In this document: piece by piece, positions 9,772 to 51,437 of the stretch
Layout: each line of letters begins with the position of its first letter
Numbering within the stretch: the stretch's first letter is position 1
Source of the DNA: a virus
Lineage: Duplodnaviria > Heunggongvirae > Uroviricota > Caudoviricetes
Length of the DNA: 64,000 nt
Direction: 5' to 3' (one strand)
IMG/VR virus record: IMGVR_UViG_3300027365_000008
The notes under the pieces: generated by a model
Seen by the model: only the letters and a program-made list of their open reading frames with translations
What the model was told of the DNA's origin: nothing
Database searches by the model: none
Position numbers and translations under genes: made by a program

Positions 9772-10188
9772 CTATTCCGGCCTTGTTTGCTGCTCGATAT
9801 ATTGCTTGACGACACTCAGCGGTGCTCCGCCGACGCTCCCCGCAAAATAGCTGGGGCTCCATAACGCATTTTTCCTATAGGCAGGCTGCACCAACTCAGG
9901 GTGAAGTAGTTTCATCCGCCTACTCGAAACGCCTTTTAGGCTGTTGACTAGCCGGGAAACCGCCACCTTGGGTGGGAAATTGACCAGCAAGTGAACATGA
10001 TCGGTTTCGCCATTGAATTGCTTTAGTTCGGCCTCGAAGTCCTGGCATACCCGCTTGAACAGGCTTTCAAGGGAATGGAGATGCGCATCATTGAATACCT
10101 TGCCACGATATTTAGTCACAAAGACCAAGTGGGCGTGCATCTCAAAAACGCAGTGCCTGCCAGTTCTGATTGAGTTGATTTTGTCCAT
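9772..10188 (-). CDS. tnpA: IS200/IS605 transposase TnpA (Y1 HUH transposase)
   Basis: HAHLVFVTKYR, HVHLLVNFPP (HUH), VNSLKGVSSR and YFAGSVG motifs; 138 aa. Confidence 0.85.
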   Translation of the reverse strand: MDKINSIRTGRHCVFEMHAHLVFVTKYRGKVFNDAHLHSLESLFKRVCQDFEAELKQFNGETDHVHLLVNFPPKVAVSRLVNSLKGVSSRRMKLLHPELVQPAYRKNALWSPSYFAGSVGGAPLSVVKQYIEQQTRPE

Positions 10189-10993: not shown

Positions 10994-11310
10994 TCAAGAA
11001 GAGGTGATGCGTTTGGTCTTTCTCTCAAAGGAAGTTTGACCTAGTTCTTTGTAGCTATCTGTGATAGCCTTCTTAGCAATGACCACCGGGGGCTGGATGG
11101 CAACATGCGGGTAGAACTTGGCTTTGAACACCGAGAAGCGCAGCATCGGATACTCCATCTTCCAATGGATAGCAATCGCCAGCAGTTCGGGGGCATTATG
11201 ATTGGAACCGAAATCGTAAAAGATGACCTGCTTCTTGGTGCAGAAGTCAACGATTCCTTTGTAGTAAATGTCTTGTGTTTGGATTACATCAAGTAGGGCT
11301 TCTTGCATAG
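10994..11310 (-). CDS. hypothetical protein
   Basis: Minus-strand ORF abutting the IS right end. Start placed at the internal ATG (MQEALL...) preceded by gagg, because the longer ORF overlaps the next + gene. Confidence 0.35.
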
Positions 11311-11354: not shown

Positions 11355-11948
11355 ATGAAAATGATAATCGAATCAGTTGAACACTTCACCGACAAAGAAG
11401 AAGCAATGTTATCTTTCTGTGCGAGCATCATTCGTGTGGATATAGATTCCCCACTGGCTCGTTCTCTCTATGAGGAATGGGTTAACCACGTCGGTACTAA
11501 GGCACACCAAGAAGGTTTCTATGTAGATTTCAAATTAAGTGCTCTGTATGATTATGCTGGGGAGCGTAGTCTATTGTATGATATTTATGGGGATAATGCT
11601 GGAAACAGTTTTATAAGAATCGATGAAGCGGTGACAGGATCATCAGGAGACAGTATTTTGTTTGGTTATGAACCTCCTTATGGTGGTGATTTTTTGATGT
11701 TATATGGTATTTCGCCTCGCTTTCGATCAAAACATCATAGGGTAGGTGAGCCAATAGACAGCCCGATTGTTTGGTTAATAGCCAACCAAAAGGGATTTTA
11801 TCTCGTCACACCTATCACTGATGAGTTTTATAGTCATTTGAAATATGTTGTTGGTGAAGAGGAACTTAGAGAAATTCTCAGTAAAGAGATTGGATCAGAA
11901 GAAATGAAAGATGATCTTAACAATATGATTTCAATGAAACATCTGTGA
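11355..11948 (+). CDS. hypothetical protein, member of a tandem paralog family
   Basis: N-terminus IIESVEHFTDKEEAMLSFCASIIRVD resembles the next gene. Confidence 0.45.
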   Translation: MKMIIESVEHFTDKEEAMLSFCASIIRVDIDSPLARSLYEEWVNHVGTKAHQEGFYVDFKLSALYDYAGERSLLYDIYGDNAGNSFIRIDEAVTGSSGDSILFGYEPPYGGDFLMLYGISPRFRSKHHRVGEPIDSPIVWLIANQKGFYLVTPITDEFYSHLKYVVGEEELREILSKEIGSEEMKDDLNNMISMKHL

Positions 11949-12605
11949 TTGATGGATAGGAGAGTCTTCATGATGATCGAATCTGTTAAGAGGTACGATG
12001 AAACGGAATCAGCTTTCGTCGGGTTCTGTGCTAGTCTTTTGGGTGTTGACGATGAATCCAAATTTGCCGCTTCCATGTTTCGCTGTTGGAGAATGTATGT
12101 TGAAAAGCGTTATAATCAGGGTATCAAGCGCGCTATGGTGTTGAACTTCGTTGATATGATATTCCATGAAACACTGTTGAATAGGGAGTCGTTGCCCACC
12201 GACTTCTTCTATCACGTCTTCCATGATAAAACCTATTTGAAAGAAGGGTCTATCGATATAGACGAACGTGCAAAAGGCTCAAGAGGGGTTCGACATTTGG
12301 GATTCGATGGAGTTGCGAGGAAAGACTTCCCATTAATGCTTCTGGGGCAAGTTATGATAGAGATTTTCACGGTACACCCTGATTACAATCAGCCCGCTTG
12401 GATGATAAAATTCGAATCTACTCCCTACTATGTTCTCAAATCAACACCCATTGACGGGGATGATACGGTTCGCCATCTGCCATATATGTTAGATGAGACT
12501 GTTGATGAAGGTCTTACAATGTTACAACAGATCACCGAGGAATCCGAGAACGAGGAAATGCTTAAAGCATCGATCAATAATATCTGTAGTTTCAGAGCAT
12601 TATAG
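11949..12605 (+). CDS. hypothetical protein, member of a tandem paralog family
   Basis: N-terminus MIESVKRYDETESAFVGFCASLLGVD parallels the 11355 product. Confidence 0.45.
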   Translation: MMDRRVFMMIESVKRYDETESAFVGFCASLLGVDDESKFAASMFRCWRMYVEKRYNQGIKRAMVLNFVDMIFHETLLNRESLPTDFFYHVFHDKTYLKEGSIDIDERAKGSRGVRHLGFDGVARKDFPLMLLGQVMIEIFTVHPDYNQPAWMIKFESTPYYVLKSTPIDGDDTVRHLPYMLDETVDEGLTMLQQITEESENEEMLKASINNICSFRAL

Positions 12606-12942: not shown

Positions 12943-13464
12943 ATGCCAATTATCACAGAAGTGCGTCGAACGACTACTTTCAGAGACGCCATGAGGCTGT
13001 TGCTGGAAGTTGGATTGAACTCGTATGACATCAGTGAATCAGAAATAGATCGACTGTATGAAAAATGGCATCGCAGTGTGTTGGACAAGGTTGAACATAG
13101 AGGTTATACAAAGATATTTGTAGATGCAGAAATGTTGGTAGAGATTGGTGATTTTGCTGACGGGATACATATCTTCGTTGACGAAGGCGGTGGTCGTAAA
13201 TCGGCTTTTAAGTATCTATTTGAAGATGAGAAATCGTATGAAATGTGCAATCTTCTCTTAGATGTTGTCGAGCCGACATCGAATAGAAATCACCTGACTG
13301 CGGCTTGGCTTTTTGGCTTCGGTGATAGTTTCTTTGTCATTAAGAATGGAAGTAGACGTGAAGAACTCCATTTTTCTTATGTGTTGGAATCTGCATTTGA
13401 TGAAGTGGGCGTCATCGATCTGGTAACCAACTCCAAAGATGCTGAAAGTTCCGTGAACATATAG
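12943..13464 (+). CDS. hypothetical protein, possibly a third member of the paralog family
   Basis: N-terminal EVGLNSYDISESEIDRLYEKWHRSV.KVEHRGY resembles the SLYEEWVNHVGTKAHQEGF region of the 11355 product. Confidence 0.4.
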   Translation: MPIITEVRRTTTFRDAMRLLLEVGLNSYDISESEIDRLYEKWHRSVLDKVEHRGYTKIFVDAEMLVEIGDFADGIHIFVDEGGGRKSAFKYLFEDEKSYEMCNLLLDVVEPTSNRNHLTAAWLFGFGDSFFVIKNGSRREELHFSYVLESAFDEVGVIDLVTNSKDAESSVNI

Positions 13465-13489: not shown

Positions 13490-14011
13490 ATGAACCCGGT
13501 TCTAAAACAATACGAAACAGAAAGCGAAGCCCATTATGCGGTATTACGACACGTCCGAGAATTGTCTGTTTACGAGATCGATGGGATAAAGTTCATCGGT
13601 GATATGCGTCTAATCGCCCAACGCGGGCGTGACACCATCGGTATACTCGGACGAGAGAATAGTAGTACCGAACTGATGTTAAGTTTCGATACTAACTATA
13701 TGGATGGAGATAGCATCAAATCGACCGAAGGTGAATTGAAGAACGGTCACTGGGCAATTGCTGGCAGAGTCAGTTATCATGATTGTGCCGTCATATACAC
13801 CAACTCTCAGCATGGCATTTGGGTTATCTCTAACATTACATTTCAAACACTTGATGATTTGATGTCTATCAATAGTAGTATTGAATCCGATGACGGTAGG
13901 GAGAGCCACGATGTTGTCAAATGCATTATCAATCCTATTCTTGAGTATCATGATGATCCTGATGGCTTGGTTGAGTATGTGACCAACGTCCAAGGGATGC
14001 GCAACCTATGA
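13490..14011 (+). CDS. hypothetical protein
   Basis: ORF. Confidence 0.4.
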   Translation: MNPVLKQYETESEAHYAVLRHVRELSVYEIDGIKFIGDMRLIAQRGRDTIGILGRENSSTELMLSFDTNYMDGDSIKSTEGELKNGHWAIAGRVSYHDCAVIYTNSQHGIWVISNITFQTLDDLMSINSSIESDDGRESHDVVKCIINPILEYHDDPDGLVEYVTNVQGMRNL

Positions 14012-14040
14012 TGACTTGACAATCCATCGCCAATCGGTAC

Positions 14041-14202
14041 AATATCGCCTATGAACGATTCCTTTGAACAACTCAAGTCTGATATAGTCATCGCTGCCGG
14101 GCTTCAATCTCAGGAAGCTACCGGATTCTATGCTATCCATTGCCGTTTGTATAGACTTCGACATAAGGTTCAAACTTGTTCGATTTGGTTAGGTTTGTGG
14201 AG
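14041..14202 (+). pseudogene. divergent duplicate of the primase 5' end (about 32 codons homologous, then out-of-context residues)
   Basis: [31 protein letters not shown] here versus [31 protein letters not shown] at primase gene 15019; its 3' part overlaps the HNH gene end. Confidence 0.55.
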
Positions 14203-14918
14203 GCATCTATGATTTGTAAATTCCATGGCACATGAAGACCGCTGACCAACTTCCCTTGAAGTGGAATGATATGGTCTACATGAACATCATACCCTTGTTC
14301 TCGAAGATTGGTAGCTTCTGCATAGATGGATTTGATTTCATCTTCAAAACCTTCAAAGGAACGATTGAGTTTAGCTGCACGGCGTTTAGCTGCTGATATT
14401 TTTGTCCAAAGTCGTATCTTGTTGATGTTATTTGTACGATACATAGCATACCACTGTTTACGGATTTCGATATTCTCTATCCGCCACCGGGCATGGTACT
14501 CATTGCGTTCCTTGCGATTATCAACTTGATATTGCTTCTGATACTCAATTCGTTCTTCTTGATGGCGTTGGTAATAGTCTTTTTGGTACTCTAAACGGGA
14601 TTCGCGGTTCTCTTGATAATACAATCTATCTTTCTCGTTCATAAGATCACGGTTTTCTTTGCGATAGATACGCTTAGATTCCTTAATCTTCTCTTCATTT
14701 CGTTTTCGATACGATTTGGCGCGTGCTTTAATTTCATCGTGTTTCTCTACCTCATAAACAAGTTGACATCGGAGACATTTCCCGTTACTAGCGTAACGTA
14801 TTGATATATGCCCGTTACCACATGGGTTTCCTGTAAAGTAATAGCGTATTCCACGTTCTTTCGCGGTACTTCGAGAAATGAGTTGTCCATAGTGCGGGTG
14901 GATGGTGTCACTGATCAT
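14133..14918 (-). CDS. free-standing HNH homing endonuclease
   Basis: C-terminal [36 protein letters not shown] (HNH); N-terminal [19 protein letters not shown] zinc-binding motif; long R/K/E/Y-rich repetitive middle. Confidence 0.7.
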
Positions 14919-15018
14919 TGACTTCTCCTTCGAGGTTTGTTTAAATGACTAGATTGGGTAGCGGCAACGTCTCTATCCTCAATATTTACCTGCCTACCAA
15001 TTCGAAGGAGTCGCTTAT

Positions 15019-15966
15019 ATGAACGATGCATTTGAAACTATGAAACACGATATAATGCTGGCGTGCTCACTCACTACCCAAGAAGCAACAGGCTTTTATG
15101 CTACCAACTGTCCTATATGCAAAAAACAGGATAGAAAAACAGGGGGGTTTTTGTTTGAATCTGATACCTGTGTATTTCAGTGCTTTCGTGGATCATGTGA
15201 TGCCACTTGTGTTTACCGCGTAGGTGAACCAGTATCTCGCAAGTTCCGGCGTCTCATGGAATCTATTCATGTTTCAATTCCACTTGAATTGCGGATGGTC
15301 AAGTCATCATTCAAGAAAGCCCTAGAAGAGAGTCTGGATGAGTCTCTGTTCAAGAAGCATCATTACAAACAGATCAATATGCCGGATGGTTGGGTTCCAT
15401 TGCATTCCGTATCGGATCAGAAACAGGCATTCTGGCTCGATCATTATGACCGTAGGGCAGTGCCTACCCATGACATCCTTTACATCGAGAAGGGCACCTA
15501 CAAGGGGCTGACTGCCATTCCTGCGTATTACTATGATAAGCTGATTGGCTTTCAGGTTGTCAATCCAAAGGGTCGGGTCAAGTACATAACAGAAACTGAT
15601 AACACGCACATGATCTATGTCCCTGATCGGTTTCCCGGTGAACGTATTATCGTGGTGGAAGGCATCTTAGATGCCAAGTGCTTTCCGATGACCTGTGCCG
15701 TCATGAGAAGCAGCATCACGCCAGAACAAGCCTACTTCTTGAAAGGTAAAGACGTTATCTTCTTGCCTGATCGAACTGGAAACCATTTCATCGATCAAGT
15801 CAAGGATTATGGGTGGAAGATGTGTGTTCCACCTTGGAAGGAAAAAGACTTGAACAGCGCAGTGATCAAGTACGGGGTAATGGCTGTCGCCGAGATGATC
15901 CATGAGAATACATTTGAAAGTTATCTCGACATCCGAGTTAGATACGATCTTTGGAGGCAGAAATGA
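15019..15966 (+). CDS. DNA primase (DnaG/T4 gp61-like: zinc ribbon plus TOPRIM)
   Basis: CPICKK..C..C zinc ribbon; TOPRIM motifs IIVVEGILDAKC and VIFLPDRTGNH. Confidence 0.7.
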   Translation: MNDAFETMKHDIMLACSLTTQEATGFYATNCPICKKQDRKTGGFLFESDTCVFQCFRGSCDATCVYRVGEPVSRKFRRLMESIHVSIPLELRMVKSSFKKALEESLDESLFKKHHYKQINMPDGWVPLHSVSDQKQAFWLDHYDRRAVPTHDILYIEKGTYKGLTAIPAYYYDKLIGFQVVNPKGRVKYITETDNTHMIYVPDRFPGERIIVVEGILDAKCFPMTCAVMRSSITPEQAYFLKGKDVIFLPDRTGNHFIDQVKDYGWKMCVPPWKEKDLNSAVIKYGVMAVAEMIHENTFESYLDIRVRYDLWRQK

Positions 15967-17569: not shown

Positions 17570-18967
17570 ATGTCAGACACGATTAACAAGAAAGAGAAGA
17601 TTACCCTTGAGTATGCCCTGTCCGACAGGGAACTCTTTCTTAAAGCCCATTCTGTTCTGAAACCATCATACTTCGAACGACCGCTGGATGCGGTTGTCGA
17701 ATATGCGCTCGAATACTTTAGCAACTACCACAAGATTCCCGACTTCGATCTGATCGAGGCAGAAACCAACGTCTCGTTGAAATACCGAGATGTTGATGAT
17801 AGTGATCGTCAGTATGCGGTGGATGAGATTGAACACCACTGTGCCAAACAGGCAATGGTCGAAGCTATCCTGAAAAGTGCCGATCTGGTCAACGATGACG
17901 AAGTTGATTTGACTCAGGTACAGACCCTAGTCAGGGATGCCCTGATGGTCAAGATCGACAAGGTTCTGGGTACCGATCTATTTGAATCGCCGAGGGAACG
18001 TCGAGAACGCTCAGAACTTAACGTCGATGGGAAACTGATGGGCATTCCGGCTCTCGATGAGATTGCCGAAGAATGGCGGCGCGGCGAATTGTACTTCTTC
18101 GTTGCGGGCACATCCGTGGGTAAGTCTGTCATGCTGGGTAACGTGGCAGAACGGTTCTCATCACAGAAAGAAGACGTGATGATCTATTCGGTGGAGATGA
18201 ACGAAGACCTCTATAGCAAGCGTCTGGATTCTATCGTTACCGGAACGCCTATCAAGGAACCCGATGTCGATGAGATCGTTGACTATCTGGAATCCAATCG
18301 TGAAGATTATGGAAGGATTACAACCAAGAAGGTTAACACCAAGTTCGGAGTAGAAGACCTTCGGGCGCATCTACTCGAATACCACATGACCTACGGCAAG
18401 TATCCCGATGTCTGTATCATCGACTACATCGATATTTTTGGAACGGGTGCCGCTCAATCCAAGAACATGAACAAGTATGATATCGATGAACACAAAACGC
18501 ATTCTATTCGTGATCTTATGGATGAGTTTGGAATGCGAGGCTTCACGGCGGCACAGATGAACCGTGATGGCTATGGTCTGGCGGATATCGGACCTCAGCA
18601 CGTTCAAGGCGGTCTGTCCAAGCTGCAAGGCGCGGATGGGGCGTTCGCACTGGTCGCTACCGAAGAGGACTTGGAAAACGATCAGCTTCAGTGCAAAGGG
18701 ATCAAACTCCGTAACTCCAACAACAAACACAAGGTGATCACCCTGTATCGGTGTCCCAAGACATTGCGGGTTACCGATGAACCGTTAATCCCTAAGCAAA
18801 AGAACCCTCTTGACAAGCGTAAGGCAGACAAGGACAATGGGGGTCCGAGCAACACCCCCAAGAAAACGACATCCAAATCAACATCCAAAAAGGATTTGAT
18901 TAAGGATACGCCCAAGTCGGGTAAAGACAAACTGAAACAGGCGATGAGCCTAAGTCGAGGACTCTAA
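17570..18967 (+). CDS. replicative DNA helicase (DnaB family, T4 gp41-like)
   Basis: GIPALDEIAEEWRRGELYFFVAGTSVGKSVMLGN Walker A; DVCIIDYID Walker B; RecA-like core with a DnaB N-domain; 465 aa. Confidence 0.8.
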   Translation: MSDTINKKEKITLEYALSDRELFLKAHSVLKPSYFERPLDAVVEYALEYFSNYHKIPDFDLIEAETNVSLKYRDVDDSDRQYAVDEIEHHCAKQAMVEAILKSADLVNDDEVDLTQVQTLVRDALMVKIDKVLGTDLFESPRERRERSELNVDGKLMGIPALDEIAEEWRRGELYFFVAGTSVGKSVMLGNVAERFSSQKEDVMIYSVEMNEDLYSKRLDSIVTGTPIKEPDVDEIVDYLESNREDYGRITTKKVNTKFGVEDLRAHLLEYHMTYGKYPDVCIIDYIDIFGTGAAQSKNMNKYDIDEHKTHSIRDLMDEFGMRGFTAAQMNRDGYGLADIGPQHVQGGLSKLQGADGAFALVATEEDLENDQLQCKGIKLRNSNNKHKVITLYRCPKTLRVTDEPLIPKQKNPLDKRKADKDNGGPSNTPKKTTSKSTSKKDLIKDTPKSGKDKLKQAMSLSRGL

Positions 18968-19799: not shown

Positions 19800-21746
19800 A
19801 TGATGAGTTCATACGATCTTCAATACCAAGCGGCACTCAATCGTATTCTTCAATATGGATACGATTCTGATGACAGAACCGGTGTCGGAACCCGAAAGAT
19901 GTTCGATGTCAACTTCAATGATGATCTGCGTCATGAAGTGGCTGACGAATATAAACTACCGGCACTAACCATTCGCAAGGTCTTCCCCCGCACGGCATTC
20001 TATGAACTGATGTGGATGCTCAACGGGATTACCAACGTCGATTGGCTATATGAACGAAACATCAACATCTGGAATGGAAACAGCACTCGGGAGTTCCTTG
20101 ATTCTCGTGGTCTGTATCATATCCGTGAAGGGCATATCGGTCGCGGCTATGGCTATCAGATTCGCAACTTCAATGGGGTCGATCAACTCGAAGAACTGTT
20201 CAAGGGACTGTATTACAATCCTAACGGTAGGCGACATCTAATCTCATTCTGGAATCCCGGCGATCTGAAAGAGATGGCTCTGCCTCCATGTTTCGTTGCG
20301 GGAACACAGGTTGCTCTCGCTACAGGGGAATATAAGGCCATCGATTCGATTTCGGTAGGTGATTCGGTCTTAACATCATCCGGCGAATATCATCAGGTCT
20401 ACAATGTGATGAAAACCCCTTATGACGGGGATTTTGTAACTATCAAAGCTACGGGAATTCCAAACACGACATGTACTCCAAACCATCTCTTTCTGGTCAA
20501 GGACAAAGGATATGTTAAGGCTTCTTCCATCAACGTAGGTGACTTTGTGCTTGTTAGAGGGGCAAGCGAACACGAAAATATTCCTTCTTTCGAAATCAAG
20601 AAACATTCTAAAGCGTGGGGGGTAGAATCAGAACGAACGGAAGAAATATTTAGATTGGATTCCGAAGAGAAATGGTTTATGCTTGGGTACTTCGTAGGTA
20701 ATGGGTATGTGACATCTAATCGAGAGGGAGCAAAGCCAGACCGAGGAACGATATCAATACCTCTACATAAAGAAAATGATATAATCAATAGGTTTGGTGG
20801 TGTTATTAATCTCTATGTCAAGAATAGAACACAATCCATGGTGGCTATGGAATTCAGTTCTCGTAGATGGTCGACTGTCTTTAGAGAATTCGGGAGCAAA
20901 GCGCATGGGAAATTCATCCCTACGTGGGTTGAAGAATCTCCTAAGTGGGCAATTGAATCTTTCCTTGAAGGATATATCGCAGCAGATGGATGCATACTAG
21001 GAAATTCGTATTCGATAACGACGGTATCGCCATCATTGGCATACGGGGTTCAACGGTTATTCACTAAAATGGGTAAATCGGCTCGGGTCAGTAAACAAGT
21101 TCGACCAAAGACTACGATCATAGAGGGCAGAATTGTCAACCAAAGAGACACGTATACAATATCCGTAAGGATTGATGAGACAAAACGAAGATCATTCAAT
21201 TTCATCCATAATGAGAGTGGGATGTGGTGTAAGGTGGCTAAAGTTACCCACGAGAAGTCGAATGAACACGATGGGTTTGTGTATAACCTTAGCGTAGATA
21301 CTGATCACACGTACACTGCGAACAACATAGTCAATCATAATTGCCATTTATTGTACAATTTCGTTGTGACCGGGGAATATCTCAATCTGAAGTTCTATCA
21401 GCGCAGTGCCGATATGATCCTCGGGGTTCCGACAAACATCTGTTTTGCGACATTCTTCCTGACACTGGTCGCCAAATCACTTGGTTTCAAGGTCGGCGAA
21501 GTGGCCCATTCGATTGGGGATGCTCATATCTATTCCAATCATATTGAAGTCGCCGAAGAACTCGTTAATCGAGATGCCTTCGATCAACCCGTCTTCTCGA
21601 TGTGGGTTCCCAAATACGATCCGACGCAGGGAATCGAAAGCGTGCTGGCTCCTTATCGTGATGAAAACGCATGGGAAACGTATGTCCACCTGACCTACAA
21701 ATCTCATCCGCCCATTGACAAGTCACGGCTGACCATGGCAGTATAA
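19800..21746 (+). CDS. thyA: thymidylate synthase ThyA interrupted by an in-frame intein
   Basis: ThyA motifs (GYQIRNF, ALPP-C-H..YNFVV, DAHIY); a 351-aa insertion begins directly after ALPP and ends VNHN before the catalytic Cys. Confidence 0.85.
   Translation: MMSSYDLQYQAALNRILQYGYDSDDRTGVGTRKMFDVNFNDDLRHEVADEYKLPALTIRKVFPRTAFYELMWMLNGITNVDWLYERNINIWNGNSTREFLDSRGLYHIREGHIGRGYGYQIRNFNGVDQLEELFKGLYYNPNGRRHLISFWNPGDLKEMALPPCFVAGTQVALATGEYKAIDSISVGDSVLTSSGEYHQVYNVMKTPYDGDFVTIKATGIPNTTCTPNHLFLVKDKGYVKASSINVGDFVLVRGASEHENIPSFEIKKHSKAWGVESERTEEIFRLDSEEKWFMLGYFVGNGYVTSNREGAKPDRGTISIPLHKENDIINRFGGVINLYVKNRTQSMVAMEFSSRRWSTVFREFGSKAHGKFIPTWVEESPKWAIESFLEGYIAADGCILGNSYSITTVSPSLAYGVQRLFTKMGKSARVSKQVRPKTTIIEGRIVNQRDTYTISVRIDETKRRSFNFIHNESGMWCKVAKVTHEKSNEHDGFVYNLSVDTDHTYTANNIVNHNCHLLYNFVVTGEYLNLKFYQRSADMILGVPTNICFATFFLTLVAKSLGFKVGEVAHSIGDAHIYSNHIEVAEELVNRDAFDQPVFSMWVPKYDPTQGIESVLAPYRDENAWETYVHLTYKSHPPIDKSRLTMAV
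20289..21341 (+). other. intein with a LAGLIDADG homing endonuclease domain inside thyA
   Basis: Block A CFVAGTQVAL; two LAGLIDADG-like motifs (LGYFVGNGYV, LEGYIAADGC); C-terminal IVNHN followed by +1 Cys, which is the ThyA catalytic cysteine. Confidence 0.75.
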
Positions 21747-25329: not shown

Positions 25330-28300
25330 ATGTCAACGATTATGGTTACCAAGCGTGATGGAAGCGTGGAAGACTTCAAGGTTGAGAAGGTTCGCAAATG
25401 CATCAACTGGGCATGTGAAGGTCTTCAAGTCAATCCTCTCGCATTGGAATCCCGTTTCAATGAATATCTCCAAACCGAAGTAACCACCAAAGTCATTCAA
25501 GACAGCCTCGTGTTCTGTGCGCGTTCCCTAGCCACGGCGGCTGATTCGGATTTCGTGTTCGTCGCGGGTCGCCTGATGACCATGAACATCTGGAAAGAGA
25601 CGGGCATCTATGAGAAGCCCTTCTATGACGTGCTGACCGATGGCGTGGTTCCCTATGCTATCGATAACACAATTCTTTCGAAATACACCAAAGCCGAGAT
25701 CGAGGAACTGGGTTCCTATATGGTTCAGGAACGTGATCTGAATCATAGCTTTGGTAGCGTTCTGACGGCGATCAACAAGTACCTGCTTCCTAATGAAGCC
25801 ATCCAGCCGATGATCATGGCATCCTCGATGATCATTGCCAGTGTGGAGGATCAGGAGATTCGTGTTGCGAAGGCCAAAGAGTTCTATGATTCTTTGTCAA
25901 ATCGTGAACTTTCTTTGGCAACTCCGTGGTGGGGTAACCTGCGCAGCGATGGCAATATCAGTTCGTGTTTCATCATCAAGCCGAGTGATAGCCTCGAATC
26001 GATCTTCGCTAATGTGACTCGTGCCGCAATGACTTCCAAGGCGGGTGGTGGCCTTGGCGTGTCTATGGCAGCTATTCGTGCCCAAGGCTCTCCGGTCGGT
26101 GGGCGTCCCAACTCGTCCAAAGGCGTATTCAATTGGACGAAGATTTTCAATGATGTTGCGATTGCGGTTGACCAGTGTTTTCATCCTGATACACTAGTCA
26201 CCACTCAGAATGGATTCAAGGCAATCAAAGACATTATTCCCCGCGAGGATCGTGTTCTCACCGACAACGGGAAGTTTAACCGGGTAGAAGAAAAGATCAT
26301 GTATGAGCAAAGCGAGCCGATGTATCGTGTTCGCACAGCACATGATCTTGTCGATACCTTTGTAACCGGGGAACATCCCGTTAAGGCTCTTACCAATCTG
26401 GATACCCTTGAACATGGTTACTTGGATGTGAAGGACTTGGAGATTGGTGATTATCTGGGTCAGAAGATTCCGTCTTATACGATTGAATCGGAGTTGACCC
26501 ATGAAGAACTGTACGCTTATGGTACGTCGCTCATGCTTCCGGGGGCAAATCACATCGATTCTCGATTCCTCCATATTGAACCTGAGAAACAGATGTCGAT
26601 TATCTTTGGTATGATCGATGCCAAAGGATCGGCTGACAATGCAAATGAACTGATCATCGAATCTGCGAATCTGGCTCATGAGATTCGATATCTGCTTCTC
26701 CGTAATGGAATCCCAGTAAAATCAGAATACGTCGGGGGATCATTCAAACTCACTATCCAAGCCACTGGCAAGCTGGCTCTTATGCTTGGTGTCAACGATG
26801 TCGAAGAGGTTGACTGGATCGTTTCGGATGGGTATATTTTCAGCCCCATCACTGAGTTTGAGGACGGGATTGAATACAATTCAGAAGTTTACGATCTGCG
26901 TGTGCAGAGTATTCCGTCTTATCAAACACATGCGTTCATGGCTCACAACGGCGGCAAGCGGGCAGGAGCCATTACCGTCGAACTCCCGATCTGGCACCGT
27001 GACATCGAAGGGTTCCTTGAGATTCAACATGAAACCGGCGATCTGCGCACCAAGTGCTTTGACATCTTTCCGCAAGTCGGGATGCATGATCTGTTCATGA
27101 AAATGGATGCGGCTGATGGTGAAAACGATTGGCATACATTCTGTCCGTATGAAGTGAAACAGGTTCTCGATATCCAACTGGATGAAGTTTACGGCAAGGA
27201 GTTCGAAAAGGCGTACAAGAAGTGTGTCAAAGCCTATGAGAAGGGTGATCTGAAGAACGTCGCCGTGTACAAGACACGTAACCTGATCAAGTCGATGATG
27301 CGTACCCAGTTCGAATCTGGTCTTCCGTATGTGGCCTATCTGGACACCATCAATGATGACAACCCGAATGACCATGAAGGCACGATTCCTTCCGTCAACC
27401 TTTGTGTCGCTCCCGAGACTTTGGTGCTGACTGACAAGGGCAATCTTCCTATCGTAACACTGAAAGATCAGTGGGTTAACGTCTGGAATGGACACGAGTT
27501 TAGCGAGGTCTTGGTTGAAAAGACGGCGGACCATGCTCATCTGCTGCATGTAGAAACGGAAGGCGGTCGTTCACTGGATGCGACGGACTATCACAAATGG
27601 TATCGCGTCGTCGATGGTGAAATGGAAATGGTTCGGACCTTTGAACTGAAACCGGGCGATGAAGTTTGTGTAGTCGATAACTATCCCATTGATCGTATCA
27701 AGTCTATTGATGACCAATACCGGTGGTCTGATGTATACTGTTTCAATGAACCGAAACGGCATCTGGGCGTATTCAATGGCATTATCACCGGGCAATGCAA
27801 TGAGTCATTCAGTGTCGTCAAGCCGGATGTCTATGGTCACTCGTGCAATCTGATCTCTATCGTCGCCGGTCGAGTTAAGGATTACGAACATCTGGAATAT
27901 CTGGCAGGTCTTGCGACTCGAATGCTTGACAATGGGATCGAACTGACCAAAGACCCCATGGACATTGCCGGTGCCCATAATGAGCGTTACCGCACGATTG
28001 GTATTGGCATCCAAGGTCTTCACGATTGGCTTGCCAAGAATCGCAAGATGTACAACGATACTAAATTCATCGGTGAGTTTGCAGAGACGATTCAATTTGG
28101 TGCGGTGAAAGAGAGCATCAAACTAGCTAAAGAACGCGGCGCGTATCCGGCGTACTCGGGTTCTCGGTGGGATACCGGTAAGCAGATTGCCAAGTATCGC
28201 AAGCACAGTCGTCGTGGTCTTGACTGGAATTCTTTGCAAACTGGACTTGATCAATATGGCATCCGCAATAGCCAATTGACTTCTCCGGCACCGAACACAA

Positions 28301-28695
28301 CCACGTCCATTTTCATGGATGCAGGTCCGGGCGTGATGCCGTGCTATGGTGGGTTCTATCTCAAGGACAATACCAATGGGGAGTTCCCGGTTGCCGGTAT
28401 GTATCTGAAAGAGAATCCGTTGTGCTATGCCAAGAATGCGGCTCGCTATGATCATGAAACACTCGTCAATGCGGTTGCCGAAATCCAGAAGTTCACGGAT
28501 GCGGGCATTTCGAGCGAGTATATCTTTGACCACAACAAAGAGGGCTTCAGTGCGAAAGAACTGTATGATCTGATTCATCTGGCATGGCGTAAGAAGACCA
28601 AGGCGGTCTATTACATTCGTAACATCAAGAAAGGTTCTAACCTCGAAGAAGAGGTCGGCATGAGCCAAGCATCATGCGAAGGTTGCGCAAACTAA
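25330..28695 (+). CDS. nrdA: class Ia ribonucleotide reductase alpha subunit NrdA carrying two inteins
   Basis: ATP cone (VTKRDGSVEDF); SSCFII (Cys225 region); GGKRAGAITVELPIWH; NLC-N-E active-site loop; C-terminal CEGC. Two in-frame insertions carry intein blocks. Confidence 0.85.
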   Translation: MSTIMVTKRDGSVEDFKVEKVRKCINWACEGLQVNPLALESRFNEYLQTEVTTKVIQDSLVFCARSLATAADSDFVFVAGRLMTMNIWKETGIYEKPFYDVLTDGVVPYAIDNTILSKYTKAEIEELGSYMVQERDLNHSFGSVLTAINKYLLPNEAIQPMIMASSMIIASVEDQEIRVAKAKEFYDSLSNRELSLATPWWGNLRSDGNISSCFIIKPSDSLESIFANVTRAAMTSKAGGGLGVSMAAIRAQGSPVGGRPNSSKGVFNWTKIFNDVAIAVDQCFHPDTLVTTQNGFKAIKDIIPREDRVLTDNGKFNRVEEKIMYEQSEPMYRVRTAHDLVDTFVTGEHPVKALTNLDTLEHGYLDVKDLEIGDYLGQKIPSYTIESELTHEELYAYGTSLMLPGANHIDSRFLHIEPEKQMSIIFGMIDAKGSADNANELIIESANLAHEIRYLLLRNGIPVKSEYVGGSFKLTIQATGKLALMLGVNDVEEVDWIVSDGYIFSPITEFEDGIEYNSEVYDLRVQSIPSYQTHAFMAHNGGKRAGAITVELPIWHRDIEGFLEIQHETGDLRTKCFDIFPQVGMHDLFMKMDAADGENDWHTFCPYEVKQVLDIQLDEVYGKEFEKAYKKCVKAYEKGDLKNVAVYKTRNLIKSMMRTQFESGLPYVAYLDTINDDNPNDHEGTIPSVNLCVAPETLVLTDKGNLPIVTLKDQWVNVWNGHEFSEVLVEKTADHAHLLHVETEGGRSLDATDYHKWYRVVDGEMEMVRTFELKPGDEVCVVDNYPIDRIKSIDDQYRWSDVYCFNEPKRHLGVFNGIITGQCNESFSVVKPDVYGHSCNLISIVAGRVKDYEHLEYLAGLATRMLDNGIELTKDPMDIAGAHNERYRTIGIGIQGLHDWLAKNRKMYNDTKFIGEFAETIQFGAVKESIKLAKERGAYPAYSGSRWDTGKQIAKYRKHSRRGLDWNSLQTGLDQYGIRNSQLTSPAPNTTTSIFMDAGPGVMPCYGGFYLKDNTNGEFPVAGMYLKENPLCYAKNAARYDHETLVNAVAEIQKFTDAGISSEYIFDHNKEGFSAKELYDLIHLAWRKKTKAVYYIRNIKKGSNLEEEVGMSQASCEGCAN
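26176..26949 (+). other. intein 1 in nrdA (258 aa, LAGLIDADG-type) with a non-canonical +1 residue
   Basis: Block A CFHPDTLV; block B TGEHPVKALT; IIFGMIDAKGS LAGLIDADG-like; block G VYDLRVQ...HAFMAHN; the next extein residue is Gly, not Cys/Ser/Thr. Confidence 0.65.
27403..27795 (+). other. intein 2 in nrdA (131-aa mini-intein) ending in Gln
   Basis: Inserted at NL|C-N-E; block A CVAPETLVLT; block G VYCFNEPKRHLGVFNGIITGQ followed by +1 Cys (the active-site Cys439 equivalent). Confidence 0.65.
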
Positions 28696-40841: not shown

Positions 40842-40870
40842 TCACGTCCCACCAATAACATCTCCTTGCA

Positions 40871-51297: not shown

Positions 51298-51437
51298 GCC
51301 ACTTCCTTAACCAACTTCGCTTTCACTTTACAACGCCCACACTCGGGACACTCATCATCTACCACTTCCTCGTCCATTTCAATCCATTCGGATTGACATT
51401 CAGGACAACAATAGTACAATTCAAAAAGAGGTTCCAT
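51294..51437 (-). CDS. 47-aa zinc-ribbon protein, translationally coupled to the arfA-like gene
   Basis: CCPEC...18 aa...CPECGRC; start overlaps the upstream stop (TAATG) and its stop overlaps the arfA ATG (ATGA). Confidence 0.4.
   Translation of the reverse strand: MEPLFELYYCCPECQSEWIEMDEEVVDDECPECGRCKVKAKLVKEVA

Follow-up and report, generated by a model that had tools for sequence, protein, structure and literature searches.

A putative homing-type HNH endonuclease gene between two diverged copies of a primase gene start in a tailed-phage genome

Mobile endonuclease open reading frames (ORFs) have produced hybrid genes in fungal mitochondria, as described for atp6 of Allomyces macrogynus, for atp6, atp9, cox2 and nad3 of Glomus sp., for atp9 of Rhizopus and for cox2 of Mortierella (PMC3630166). 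In these hybrids, the mobile ORF brings in a foreign gene end that is fused in frame and leaves the gene functional, as is proposed below for a phage primase gene (PMC3630166). The native end is displaced and kept as an extra diverged copy, whose protein sequence remains similar and whose DNA sequence is much less so (PMC3630166). In T4-type phages, the free-standing homing endonucleases SegF, SegG, SegB and MobE mediate intronless homing, and the antisense-oriented gene segD is probably barely expressed (PMC2988022). Experiments with the td intron of T4 demonstrated that homing can be one-sided, illegitimate junctions forming at microhomologies (Parker, Belisle and Belfort 1999, as summarized in PMC2988022). 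According to that summary, the other junction forms after resection and the route was proposed as a way for elements to invade new sites (PMC2988022). Genes can also be split by endonuclease insertion, as in the Aeh1 nrdA gene with mobE and the T4 gene 39/60 with mobA (PMC2988022), and 'fractured genes' with split inteins have been reported (PMC2677866).

The stretch of phage DNA analysed here (64,000 nt, hereafter the window) contains a locus with the layout of the mitochondrial hybrid genes: an endonuclease ORF is located between two diverged copies of one gene end, one of which is in frame with the rest of the gene (Table 1).

Table 1. Features of the primase locus, in window coordinates.
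Feature	Position	Strand	Basis or remark
Upstream gene, 173 aa, no known family	13490-14011	+	ORF
Sigma70-type promoter match TTGACA-16 nt-TACAAT, 11/12	14016-14043	+	In the 39-nt gap after the upstream gene
Orphan copy of primase codons 1-31	14051-14143	+	Gapless alignment
HNH-type endonuclease gene, free-standing, 261 aa, intact	14133-14918	-	PHROGs and catalytic motif
7-nt junction zone where primase-derived DNA gives way to HNH-derived DNA	14144-14150		Homology ends at 14143; conserved HNH end at 14151-14153
Divergent spacer, 100 nt	14919-15018		Two ribosome-binding sites
Primase codons 1-31, in-frame copy within the working gene	15019-15111	+	Gapless alignment
gp61/DnaG-type primase gene, 315 aa, intact	15019-15966	+	PHROG 47 and invariant residues

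The first-pass annotation had pointed to a primase-like fragment with diverged DNA on the far side of the endonuclease gene, and the similarity is significant when scored. The two copies share 19 of 31 amino acids and 57 of 93 nucleotides, without gaps and in register at an offset of 968 nt. A repeat search recovered both halves at this constant offset (14050-14068/15018-15036 and 14111-14142/15079-15110). Aligned ungapped to the primase N-terminus, the fragment reaches a BLOSUM62 score of 106, the runner-up in the six frames of the window scoring 26, and 200 shuffled queries gave window maxima of 27 +/- 4.1 with a top value of 41. With tblastn, E was 1.5e-7. The similarity is far above chance, and the duplicate is truly the 5' end of a diverged primase gene. 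The homology covers 31 codons, not the 32 initially counted, and lies inside a plus-strand ORF of 53 codons (14051-14212) that is unrelated to primase beyond codon 31. Possible homology 5' of both ATGs (CCAAT..CG..TCGC) was considered and is too weak to claim.

The divergence between the copies is that of coding sequence. Identity at first, second and third codon positions amounts to 20/31, 25/31 and 12/31, respectively, the corresponding 11, 6 and 19 mismatches being unevenly distributed (chi-square p = 0.028). Synonymous differences are found in nine of the 19 conserved codons, and the orphan copy displays neither indels nor stops across its 31 codons. Members of the primase family match the orphan fragment at 14.5 of 31 positions on average, versus 12.4 for the in-frame copy. 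As the divergence is concentrated at third positions and the fragment is typical of the family N-termini, both copies evolved as functional genes in separate lineages. A foreign lineage as the source of one copy, suspected in the first-pass annotation, is thus implied by the third-position bias and the synonymous changes.

The gene that the in-frame copy opens matches PHROG 47 'DNA primase' (5.5e-8) and codes for a CPxC...CxxxxC zinc ribbon and a TOPRIM domain. The invariant residues C31, C34, C55, C60, G215 and D218 and the near-invariant E214 and D251 are all present (alignment A1). Besides the protein itself, 46 homologues were collected, and the GenBank matches carry a DNA primase annotation. 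In viral contigs, relatives surfaced only with a profile, a single-sequence scan with the primase having returned none. In a profile comparison, the TOPRIM region weakly resembled the T4 primase chains 8gao_G and 8dvf_H (E = 0.05). Pfam yielded no match for the primase, and a search with the neighbours added nothing useful for either the primase or the HNH gene.

The last homologous codon of the orphan fragment encodes Cys31, with which the invariant CPxC zinc motif opens (C31, P32, C34; alignment A1), and the following 22 codons are the antisense of the HNH C-terminus. Searched against 1.84 billion representatives, the 31-residue fragment had a single, irrelevant match inside a 1502-aa protein. 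On the other side of the junction, the final codon of the conserved HNH C-terminus (...FEPYVEVY) is situated 7 nt from the fragment end. It is followed by a tail of five codons (TNGNG), of which the last three and the TAG stop fall within the primase fragment. In at least nine of 41 HNH homologues, the stop directly follows the conserved C-terminal residue; the ORF is five codons longer here. Such a short readthrough ending within the fragment would be expected if the junction lay at the outermost 3' part of the HNH gene. The history proposed below leaves one coincidence unexplained, the position of the junction no more than a codon or two from where this ORF ends.

The identification of a minus-strand HNH endonuclease gene upstream of the primase was supported by matches to PHROGs 26577 (5.3e-19), 1035 'endonuclease VII' (1.2e-17) and 1081 (6e-12) and by the catalytic motif HVDHIIPL...N, Pfam remaining silent with no family even at E = 10. 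Residues D215, H216, H229, N233 and N242 are invariant in 51 homologues, as are the zinc-ribbon residues C33, C48 and C51, and all invariant residues are retained here. The protein combines a zinc ribbon at its N-terminus with seven helical repeats of 15 residues and a putative beta-beta-alpha-metal motif at its C-terminus. In its AF2 model (pLDDT 89), strands 212-216 and 234-238 precede a helix at 239-245, and the top Foldseek matches in the PDB are Cas9 HNH domains and the colicin E7 DNase, all weak (E = 0.3-2.5). A sequence search of the PDB gave a spurious match only. PF01844 was reached by only three of the 51 relatives, at E values of at least 0.004, and two relatives are labelled McrA by JGI. 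As far as could be told, the family has no Pfam match and no sequence relative of solved structure.

The HNH gene is contained in neither an intron nor an intein, as it lies on the strand opposite to its neighbours and has its own start and ribosome-binding site. A group I or II intron was ruled out, Rfam being empty at the gathering threshold and at E <= 1. The family is promiscuous: homologues were found in 66 GenBank phages of many genera, and at about 40% identity they sit among tail genes, between the lambda-type tail genes L and K, or beside a T4-type portal gene. This sporadic distribution, with the gene missing at related loci and scattered in unrelated phages, is that expected for a homing endonuclease gene and agrees with the first-pass description of a free-standing, homing-type gene. 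Partial duplicates adjoining the endonuclease gene were found at none of the three other homologue loci examined. At one homologue locus (L048), old tube-like paralogues flank the endonuclease gene on both sides. At the DNA level, the whole locus gave only a 66-bp match in GenBank phages, to the HNH motif of Pseudomonas phage PAB2. The GC content dips slightly over the HNH gene (0.38-0.40 versus 0.42-0.46), which is not diagnostic.

The upstream gene ends in ...AAC CTA TGA, the CTATGA stop/start overlap typical of the family, and no primase follows that ATG here. Among 5.8 billion proteins the upstream protein matched only itself, and it is absent even in the closest relative. The -10 hexamer of the promoter lies 7 nt 5' of the fragment ATG with no Shine-Dalgarno sequence between them, and the promoter points through the HNH gene, in antisense, toward the primase. 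The locus, initially taken to start at 14041, starts slightly upstream with this promoter. The window contains 26 sites of at least 10/12 (14.6 +/- 3.8 in shuffles), seven of which are intergenic and co-oriented with the next gene; only this one and a site at 40870 (-) are intergenic, co-oriented and reach 11/12. A 7-nt direct repeat, CCTATGA (14004-14010 and 14048-14054), bounds the 37 nt in which the promoter lies. The repeat is at most a possible target-site duplication, because ATGA is constrained in both copies. In the divergent spacer, the ribosome-binding sites of the HNH gene (14925-14933) and of the primase gene (15002-15010) form a perfect 9-nt inverted repeat, TCGAAGGAG, and no promoter match of at least 9/12 is present on either strand. 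For the HNH gene, no promoter was found among sigma70 matches or as a T4-type late motif; the latter, TATAAATA, occurs at chance frequency and never near the locus. A terminator scan detected one weak site (14380-14395), no more than chance.

The comparison with relatives lacking the endonuclease gene, recommended in the first-pass annotation, covered about 25 related primase loci: all have a single primase start, and none has such an HNH gene or a second start. Of 20 related loci, 10 show a 4-nt overlap between the upstream gene and the primase start, and in nearly all relatives the primase is coupled to the upstream gene without a promoter. Close relatives of the phage itself were found in no collection searched. 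When the end of the upstream gene was sought as an exact pattern in the viral contigs, nothing matched, the phage being absent from that collection.

Which copy is native was assessed against L001, the relative nearest to the genome backbone, and L002. The helicase has L001 as its nearest relative in 2000 of 2000 bootstraps, and the in-frame primase has L002 in 1902 and L001 in 83 of 2000. The difference in identity, L001 minus L002, is +0.15 (0.10 to 0.20) for the helicase and -0.04 (-0.10 to 0.01) for the primase. Over only 31 residues each, the identity to L001 is 0.68 for the fragment, close to the 0.66 expected from the helicase (z = +0.15), and 0.52 for the in-frame N-terminus (z = -1.6). 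These values weakly suggest that the orphan fragment is the native copy and the in-frame start the import. The first-pass annotation had regarded the endonuclease gene as the carrier of the orphan fragment; the polarity is weakly the opposite, as the fragment fits the L001 backbone and the in-frame primase is nearer to L002. This polarity is weak because the fragment has only 31 residues and groups with L001 in just 41% of bootstraps, and because the primase of L002 shows unusual closeness to all the others (mean z = +1.0). The residual of the window primase against L001 is z = -0.75 only.

On balance, it seems probable that a 968-bp homing-endonuclease cassette sits effectively inside the primase gene at codon 31/32 and supplies it with a replacement start. 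The unit would extend from about 14144 to 15111 and consist of the opposite-strand HNH gene, the 100-nt spacer that gives each divergent gene one ribosome-binding site, and 31 primase codons reading in frame. The nuclease would have cut a cassette-free primase allele within the conserved zinc-motif coding sequence. Conserved coding sites such as CPxC are typical targets of homing endonucleases. The right broken end would then have paired with the donor primase, and copying would have proceeded leftward through the primase start, the spacer and the HNH gene. Since these phages have unrelated upstream genes, the left end would have found no homology to use and would have been fused illegitimately to the extreme end of the HNH ORF, leaving the recipient's own first 31 codons stranded upstream, right behind their promoter. 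We infer the cleavage site solely from the Cys31/Pro32 breakpoint, and the repair route is likewise deduced.

Such an entry would correspond to one-sided, partly illegitimate double-strand-break repair; only one-sided homology would have been available, since even the closest relative lacks a homologue of the upstream gene. Co-conversion during homing, as first suggested, fits only in part, as it does not account for the second copy. In two-sided homing, donor sequence replaces that of the recipient and no second copy is left. The duplication therefore needs either one illegitimate junction, as in one-sided repair, or a gene-internal cassette with its own 5' end. Once in place, the orphan fragment and the primase body could serve as left and right homology arms, so that the unit could home as a block. 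It is conceivable, if rather doubtful, that the HNH gene, ribosome-binding site and exon-like start constitute a restart cassette, a distinct intron- and intein-free lifestyle inside an essential phage gene, homing as a block. Each jump would then overwrite the recipient gene start with an immune version.

The insertion may also be read the other way round, as the first-pass annotation did. In that case the primase would be native, and the promoter, the fragment and the HNH gene would form a single insert of about 1 kb at the stop/start overlap, the fragment being a souvenir of the cassette's previous host. The fragment adjoins the 3' end of the HNH gene, whose stop it contains, making them physically one block. 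Moreover, since relatives lack a promoter at this position, promoter and fragment could have come with the cassette, which counts against an imported primase start; relatives have no gap here either, and 14011-15022 is readable as one insert. The CCTATGA repeat bounding the promoter-bearing 37 nt points in the same direction, but would arise by accident about 1 time in 64 given the ATGA constraint in both copies. The in-frame N-terminus also carries the ACSL motif (residues 15-18) of L002/P0003, the nearest relative of the rest of the protein, as in a coherent gene. Against this, the fragment matches L001 on a par with the helicase and the in-frame primase is not closest to L001. Besides, native status of the primase would only relocate the duplication to a previous host and would require the one-sided event there. 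This reversed polarity is considered rather unlikely. A function for the fragment is less probable still. It could encode a leaderless 53-codon peptide, or be the promoter-proximal part of a long transcript acting at once as primase mRNA and as antisense RNA that damps HNH expression. The promoter match just before its ATG, the strongest intergenic one in the window, the frame open over all 53 codons and the lack of any other promoter match from there to the primase would fit such a role, and invading endonuclease genes are noted in reviews of T4 as able to shift or add promoters and to yield antisense transcripts (PMC2988022). However, the arrangement is unique and has no conservation support, the codons past Cys31 are simply HNH antisense, and 31 residues without the zinc ribbon have no obvious activity. 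A function would in any case fit either origin and leave the duplication unexplained.

Two further explanations carry very little weight. A local tandem duplication of the primase start, with one copy decaying and the endonuclease gene inserted later between the copies, would be expected to leave direct repeats around the insert, as observed. Nevertheless, a dead copy would show even mismatches, stops and frameshifts, whereas the mismatches are skewed (11/6/19), stops and frameshifts are absent, 9 of 19 conserved codons differ synonymously, and the fragment is nearer to the family consensus than the working copy; a tandem origin is accordingly very improbable. A chimeric contig of two phage variants is the least credible of all. 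The window is metagenomic, and one public call of the primase gene (P0001, 236 aa, on a 56-kb contig), 100% identical to residues 80-315, begins only at Met80. However, the Logan assembly of SRR5818261 is identical over 13,951 bp including the entire structure, and the HNH and upstream proteins are each found on two contigs (the longest 158 kb; JGI, Logan and ENA sources). The 61% DNA identity between the copies is too low to mislead an assembler, the three ORFs are intact and the join yields a complete in-frame primase.

Rare illegitimate events are the presumed route by which homing endonuclease genes arrive at new sites. To our knowledge, natural fossils of such events have seldom been pointed out in phages. 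If a cassette did invade the primase gene as proposed, this locus would be a preserved fossil of an illegitimate invasion with both boundaries readable. It would provide a predicted target, the CPxC zinc-motif coding sequence of gp61-type primases, for an HNH family that is widespread and unusual in its DNA-binding architecture, and would indicate that an essential gene can outlive an internal insertion through restart. The locus also offers a search image, an orphan diverged gene end beside a nuclease gene, that may reveal more cases and nuclease-driven chimerism in phage replication genes. Should the restart cassette be real and general, diverged orphan gene ends beside endonuclease genes would mark a common and so far unnoticed way in which genes are invaded internally and chimeric replication genes arise in phages.

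The principle is not new, the mirror-image structure being already established in fungal mitochondria, and the footprint described here is incremental. In mitochondria, the 3' end is duplicated and the ORF, of the GIY-YIG or LAGLIDADG type, shares the strand of the gene and is often in phase with it (PMC3630166). Here, the 5' end is duplicated, the enzyme is of the HNH type and encoded on the strand opposite to the gene, and a large phage is the host. A duplicated 5' end also obliges the cassette to supply a ribosome-binding site. The native copy was proven in the mitochondrial cases by a close relative (PMC3630166), while here it is designated by sequence comparison, and weakly so. As in T4 intronless homing, an endonuclease gene outside any intron or intein lies by a conserved replication gene of a T4-like phage and is absent at this site in relatives, and cutting of the neighbour gene in cassette-free genomes followed by copying-in with flanking donor sequence would likewise be expected (PMC2988022). 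The T4 cases nevertheless involve clean replacement (co-conversion and marker exclusion) between genes, none being described with a duplicated end or a restarted target (PMC2988022). With the td intron, as summarized in PMC2988022, homology on one side of the break suffices for acquisition of the element, as proposed here, in a laboratory system with engineered substrates in contrast to this natural locus. Finally, split and fractured genes also harbour an endonuclease gene inside an essential gene whose function is kept (PMC2988022; PMC2677866). They rely on two polypeptides or on protein trans-splicing, with no duplication, whereas the primase gene of this phage encodes a single complete polypeptide from a new start.

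The duplication at the primase locus is confirmed. Codons 1-31 of a small ORF upstream of the HNH gene align without gaps to codons 1-31 of the primase, with 19/31 residues and 57/93 bases identical, and a repeat finder recovered both halves at a constant spacing of 968 nt. The ungapped pairing has a BLOSUM62 score of 106; no other placement, in any of the window's six frames, scores above 26. Shuffled queries run over the whole window reached 27 +/- 4 (largest 41), hence the similarity of this diverged primase 5' end, proposed in the first-pass annotation, is significant. The duplicate described there as a 32-codon fragment is real; its homology spans 31 codons and lies within a 53-codon ORF.

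Coordinates of the features at the primase locus, elsewhere in the window and in related sequences
Feature	Sequence	Position	Strand
Y1 transposase gene	window	9775-10188	-
Counterpart of the ~105-115-aa gene	window	about 10994-11308	-
Neighbouring paralogous genes	window	11355-11948; 11949-12605	
173-aa gene	window	12943-13464	
Upstream gene, 173 aa (ORF)	window	13490-14011	+
CCTATGA repeats and the 37 nt between	window	14004-14054	
Small ORF, 53 codons, starting with the fragment	window	14051-14212	+
Primase-like fragment, 31 codons	window	14051-14143	+
HNH-type endonuclease gene, 261 aa (ORF)	window	14133-14918	-
gp61/DnaG-type primase, 315 aa (ORF)	window	15019-15966	+
In-frame primase codons 1-31	window	15019-15111	+
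DnaB-type helicase, 3' of the primase	window	17570-18967	
Thymidylate synthase	window	19800-21746	+
Ribonucleotide reductase large subunit	window	25330-28695	+
Second exact promoter match	window	51393-51420	+
~105-115-aa gene	L001	6749-7093	-
~105-115-aa gene	L010	5602-5940	-
~105-115-aa gene	L047	3233-3559	-
Tube-like paralogues	L048	4433-4939; 5717-6190	

The 315-aa ORF encodes a gp61/DnaG-type primase, with a match to PHROG 47 'DNA primase' (5.5e-8) and, itself excluded, 46 homologues in public data. In the family alignment, the zinc ribbon residues C31, P32, C34, C55 and C60 are invariant, as are G215 and D218 of the TOPRIM domain, E214 and D251 being nearly so. Against T4 primase structures, the family profile gives a weak match in the TOPRIM part (E = 0.05). 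A public gene call on a 56,259-bp JGI contig (P0001) is 100% identical to residues 80-315 and starts at Met80, which could reflect a gene-calling choice or a contig breaking within the locus. The source of the window is a large T4-like phage, as indicated by a T4 gp15-type tail protein and a source contig of up to 158 kb. Its closest GenBank relatives are two Alishewanella phages with a primase identity of just 41%.

Other mobile or duplicated elements are found in the window. A solitary IS200-type Y1 transposase gene (PF01797, E = 2.5e-40; PHROG 2577) lies on the opposite strand to the surrounding array of early and replication genes. The thymidylate synthase is split by an intein with a LAGLIDADG homing endonuclease (Thymidylat_synt matched as two segments, with Intein_splicing, LAGLIDADG_3 and Hom_end matches), while that of L001, L002 and Slicko01 is uninterrupted, at about 300 aa. 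The ribonucleotide reductase large subunit (1121 aa) has its barrel domain matched in two stretches and a weak Intein_splicing match at residues 732-912, and may contain a second intein. Two neighbouring genes are paralogous (38% identity over 50 aa), and the two genes next upstream of the locus, each exactly 173 aa, have no detected mutual similarity.

The endonuclease has no Pfam match, and its PHROG matches are 26577 (5e-19), 1035 'endonuclease VII' (1e-17) and, for the N-terminus, 1081. Across 51 aligned homologues, a zinc ribbon (C33, C48, C51) and the residues D215, H216, H229, N233 and N242 of an HNH-type motif HVDHIIPL...N are invariant. The AlphaFold model (pLDDT 89) starts with a small ribbon at the N-terminus, continues as a long series of helices and ends in a C-terminal beta-beta-alpha unit; among PDB folds, Cas9 HNH domains and colicin E7 match it best, without whole-chain significance. 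Residues ~70-174 form seven tandem 15-residue repeats (Y-R/Y-x-x-N-R/E...), modelled as a chain of 14-residue helices that links the zinc ribbon to the catalytic motif. The number of repeats differs among homologues, which range from 166 to 383 aa, and the chain is possibly a modular DNA-reading array. Nearly 3,000 homologues were found, the nearest 47% identical and some in 66 GenBank phages of many genera; examples with about 40% identity are located in a set of myovirus tail genes, between the lambda-type tail genes L and K, and beside a T4-type portal gene. No RNA family and thus no intron was detectable at the locus. This profile fits a putative free-standing, promiscuous homing endonuclease gene, in agreement with the initial description of a minus-strand HNH gene. 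In another phage (L048), a homologue sits between tube-like paralogues with 25% identity over 101 aa, probably an old paralogy rather than an insertion scar.

Identity between the two primase starts is 20/31, 25/31 and 12/31 at the three codon positions (mismatches 11/6/19; unevenness p = 0.028), and of the 19 codons with a conserved residue, 9 show synonymous differences only. The fragment contains no stop or indel in its 31 codons and matches other family members at a mean of 14.5 of 31 residues, against 12.4 for the in-frame N-terminus. By these patterns, the two copies diverged inside functional primase genes of separate lineages, and they do not suit a copy that was duplicated locally and then decayed. 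The structure is not an assembly accident, since the Logan assembly of run SRR5818261 reproduces 13,951 bp of the window without a difference.

Related primase loci were collected by exact protein look-up (2), profile scans (43) and from GenBank (1). Neither a second primase start nor this HNH gene is present in any of them. The upstream gene and the primase start overlap by 4 nt (ATGA) in 10 of the 20 loci examined; in the others, the two are separated by a few bases, by about a hundred bases (one distant locus) or by a conserved gene of ~110 aa on the opposite strand. In nearly every relative, an opposite-strand gene of ~105-115 aa occurs upstream of the primase, one or two genes away, and is a conserved part of the replication module. 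In the window, ATGA begins both primase copies. The upstream gene, for which no homologue was found in the closest relative or elsewhere, retains the family-typical CTATGA end.

The homology of the fragment ends at Cys31 (14141-14143), the first cysteine of the invariant CPxC within the most conserved block of the primase N-terminal domain. The conserved HNH C-terminus ...FEPYVEVY, directly after which at least 9 of 41 aligned homologues terminate, ends at 14151; the window's ORF continues for five extra codons (TNGNG) to a TAG inside the fragment. The boundary between primase-derived and endonuclease-derived DNA is therefore confined to 7 nt, 14144-14150, and the endonuclease gene has lost its own 3' flank or never had one. 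At its other end, 100 nt separate the divergent HNH and primase starts, and the two ribosome-binding sites of this spacer form a perfect 9-nt inverted repeat, TCGAAGGAG.

The 39-nt gap 3' of the upstream gene holds a promoter match, TTGACA-16-TACAAT (11/12), whose -10 hexamer ends 7 nt 5' of the fragment ATG with no Shine-Dalgarno sequence between. Since sites of at least 10/12 are more frequent in the window than in shuffles (26 compared with 14.6 +/- 3.8), and seven of the 26 are intergenic and co-oriented with the next gene, this promoter is probably real. No further match lies between it and the primase, whose transcription probably starts there and runs antisense across the endonuclease gene. 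The exact sequence TTGACA-16 nt-TACAAT occurs a second time, antisense inside an apparent small CPEC...CPEC zinc-ribbon ORF on the minus strand; about 0.02 occurrences are expected in the window by our estimate. The 37 nt holding the promoter lie between two direct copies of the 7-mer CCTATGA, and excising one copy with these 37 nt would recreate the family-typical stop/start overlap between upstream gene and fragment. The repeat may have been left by a small insertion that carried the promoter, or have arisen by chance (~1/64, as ATGA is constrained).

Because no close relative of the window phage was found, the native copy was sought through congruence with the helicase 1.6 kb downstream of the primase. 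The nearest relative of the helicase is L001, the closest relative of the genome backbone, in 2000/2000 bootstraps; for the in-frame primase it is L002 in 1902/2000, with L001 nearest in 83. Identity to L001 minus identity to L002 comes to +0.15 [0.10, 0.20] in the helicase and to -0.04 [-0.10, 0.01] in the primase. When the identity of primase segments was regressed on that of the helicase in 253 pairs of other loci, the fragment proved as close to L001 as expected (0.68, with 0.66 predicted), whereas the in-frame N-terminus (0.52, z = -1.6) and primase residues 32-120 (0.55, z = -1.2) fall below expectation. The in-frame primase is also unexpectedly near those of L005 (z = 2.7) and L006 (z = 2.65), residuals among the largest of 276 pairs. 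These comparisons favour a native fragment and an imported in-frame start, perhaps with much of the primase. The reverse, a native in-frame start and a foreign fragment, is about half as probable. The comparisons are limited in that the L002 primase is near all other primases (mean z = +1.0), the whole-primase residual to L001 is just -0.75 and the fragment has only 31 residues. With the fragment as the likelier native copy, the polarity implied at first is probably reversed.

Two-sided homing replaces the recipient sequence and cannot leave two copies, so one non-homologous junction is needed. We infer a cleavage site, a repair route and a renewed ability of the cassette to home. The nuclease would have cut a cassette-free primase allele at the CPxC-coding sequence. 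Only the right-hand end would then have found a homologous donor partner, since the primase is conserved and the upstream genes are unrelated among these phages; copying from the donor would have extended it through the primase start, the spacer and the endonuclease gene. The left-hand end, with recipient codons 1-31 and the promoter, would have been attached by an illegitimate junction where the endonuclease ORF ends. The resulting unit (~14144-15111) would be a gene-internal element with its own replacement first segment and ribosome-binding site, which could later home as a block with the orphan fragment as left homology arm and the primase body as right. One-sided homing with microhomology junctions was demonstrated for the T4 td intron and proposed as the way in which new sites are reached (Parker et al. 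1999, cited in the review PMC2988022). The initial interpretation as a co-conversion footprint is only partly supported: plain co-conversion does not suffice, as the duplication needs one-sided repair, and the polarity is probably reversed.

In the full-text literature, of which coverage was incomplete, no case was found of a phage endonuclease gene flanked by a diverged duplicate of its target gene's end. The HNH gene shares its lifestyle with the free-standing endonucleases of T4-type phages, but these leave clean co-conversion (PMC2988022), and split genes (nrdA/mobE, gene 39/60/mobA) and 'fractured genes' survive insertion by ways other than that of the primase locus. The locus is a neat natural fossil of an invasion by an endonuclease gene, and the target that it predicts is testable. 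Among described structures, the nearest are fungal mitochondrial mobile-ORF hybrids, in which an endonuclease ORF brings a foreign C-terminal segment in frame with atp6, atp9, cox2 or nad3 and the native C-terminus remains as a diverged extra copy (PMC3630166). The primase locus is their mirror image in a phage host, with the 5' end duplicated, an enzyme of HNH type encoded on the opposite strand and a ribosome-binding site brought by the cassette.
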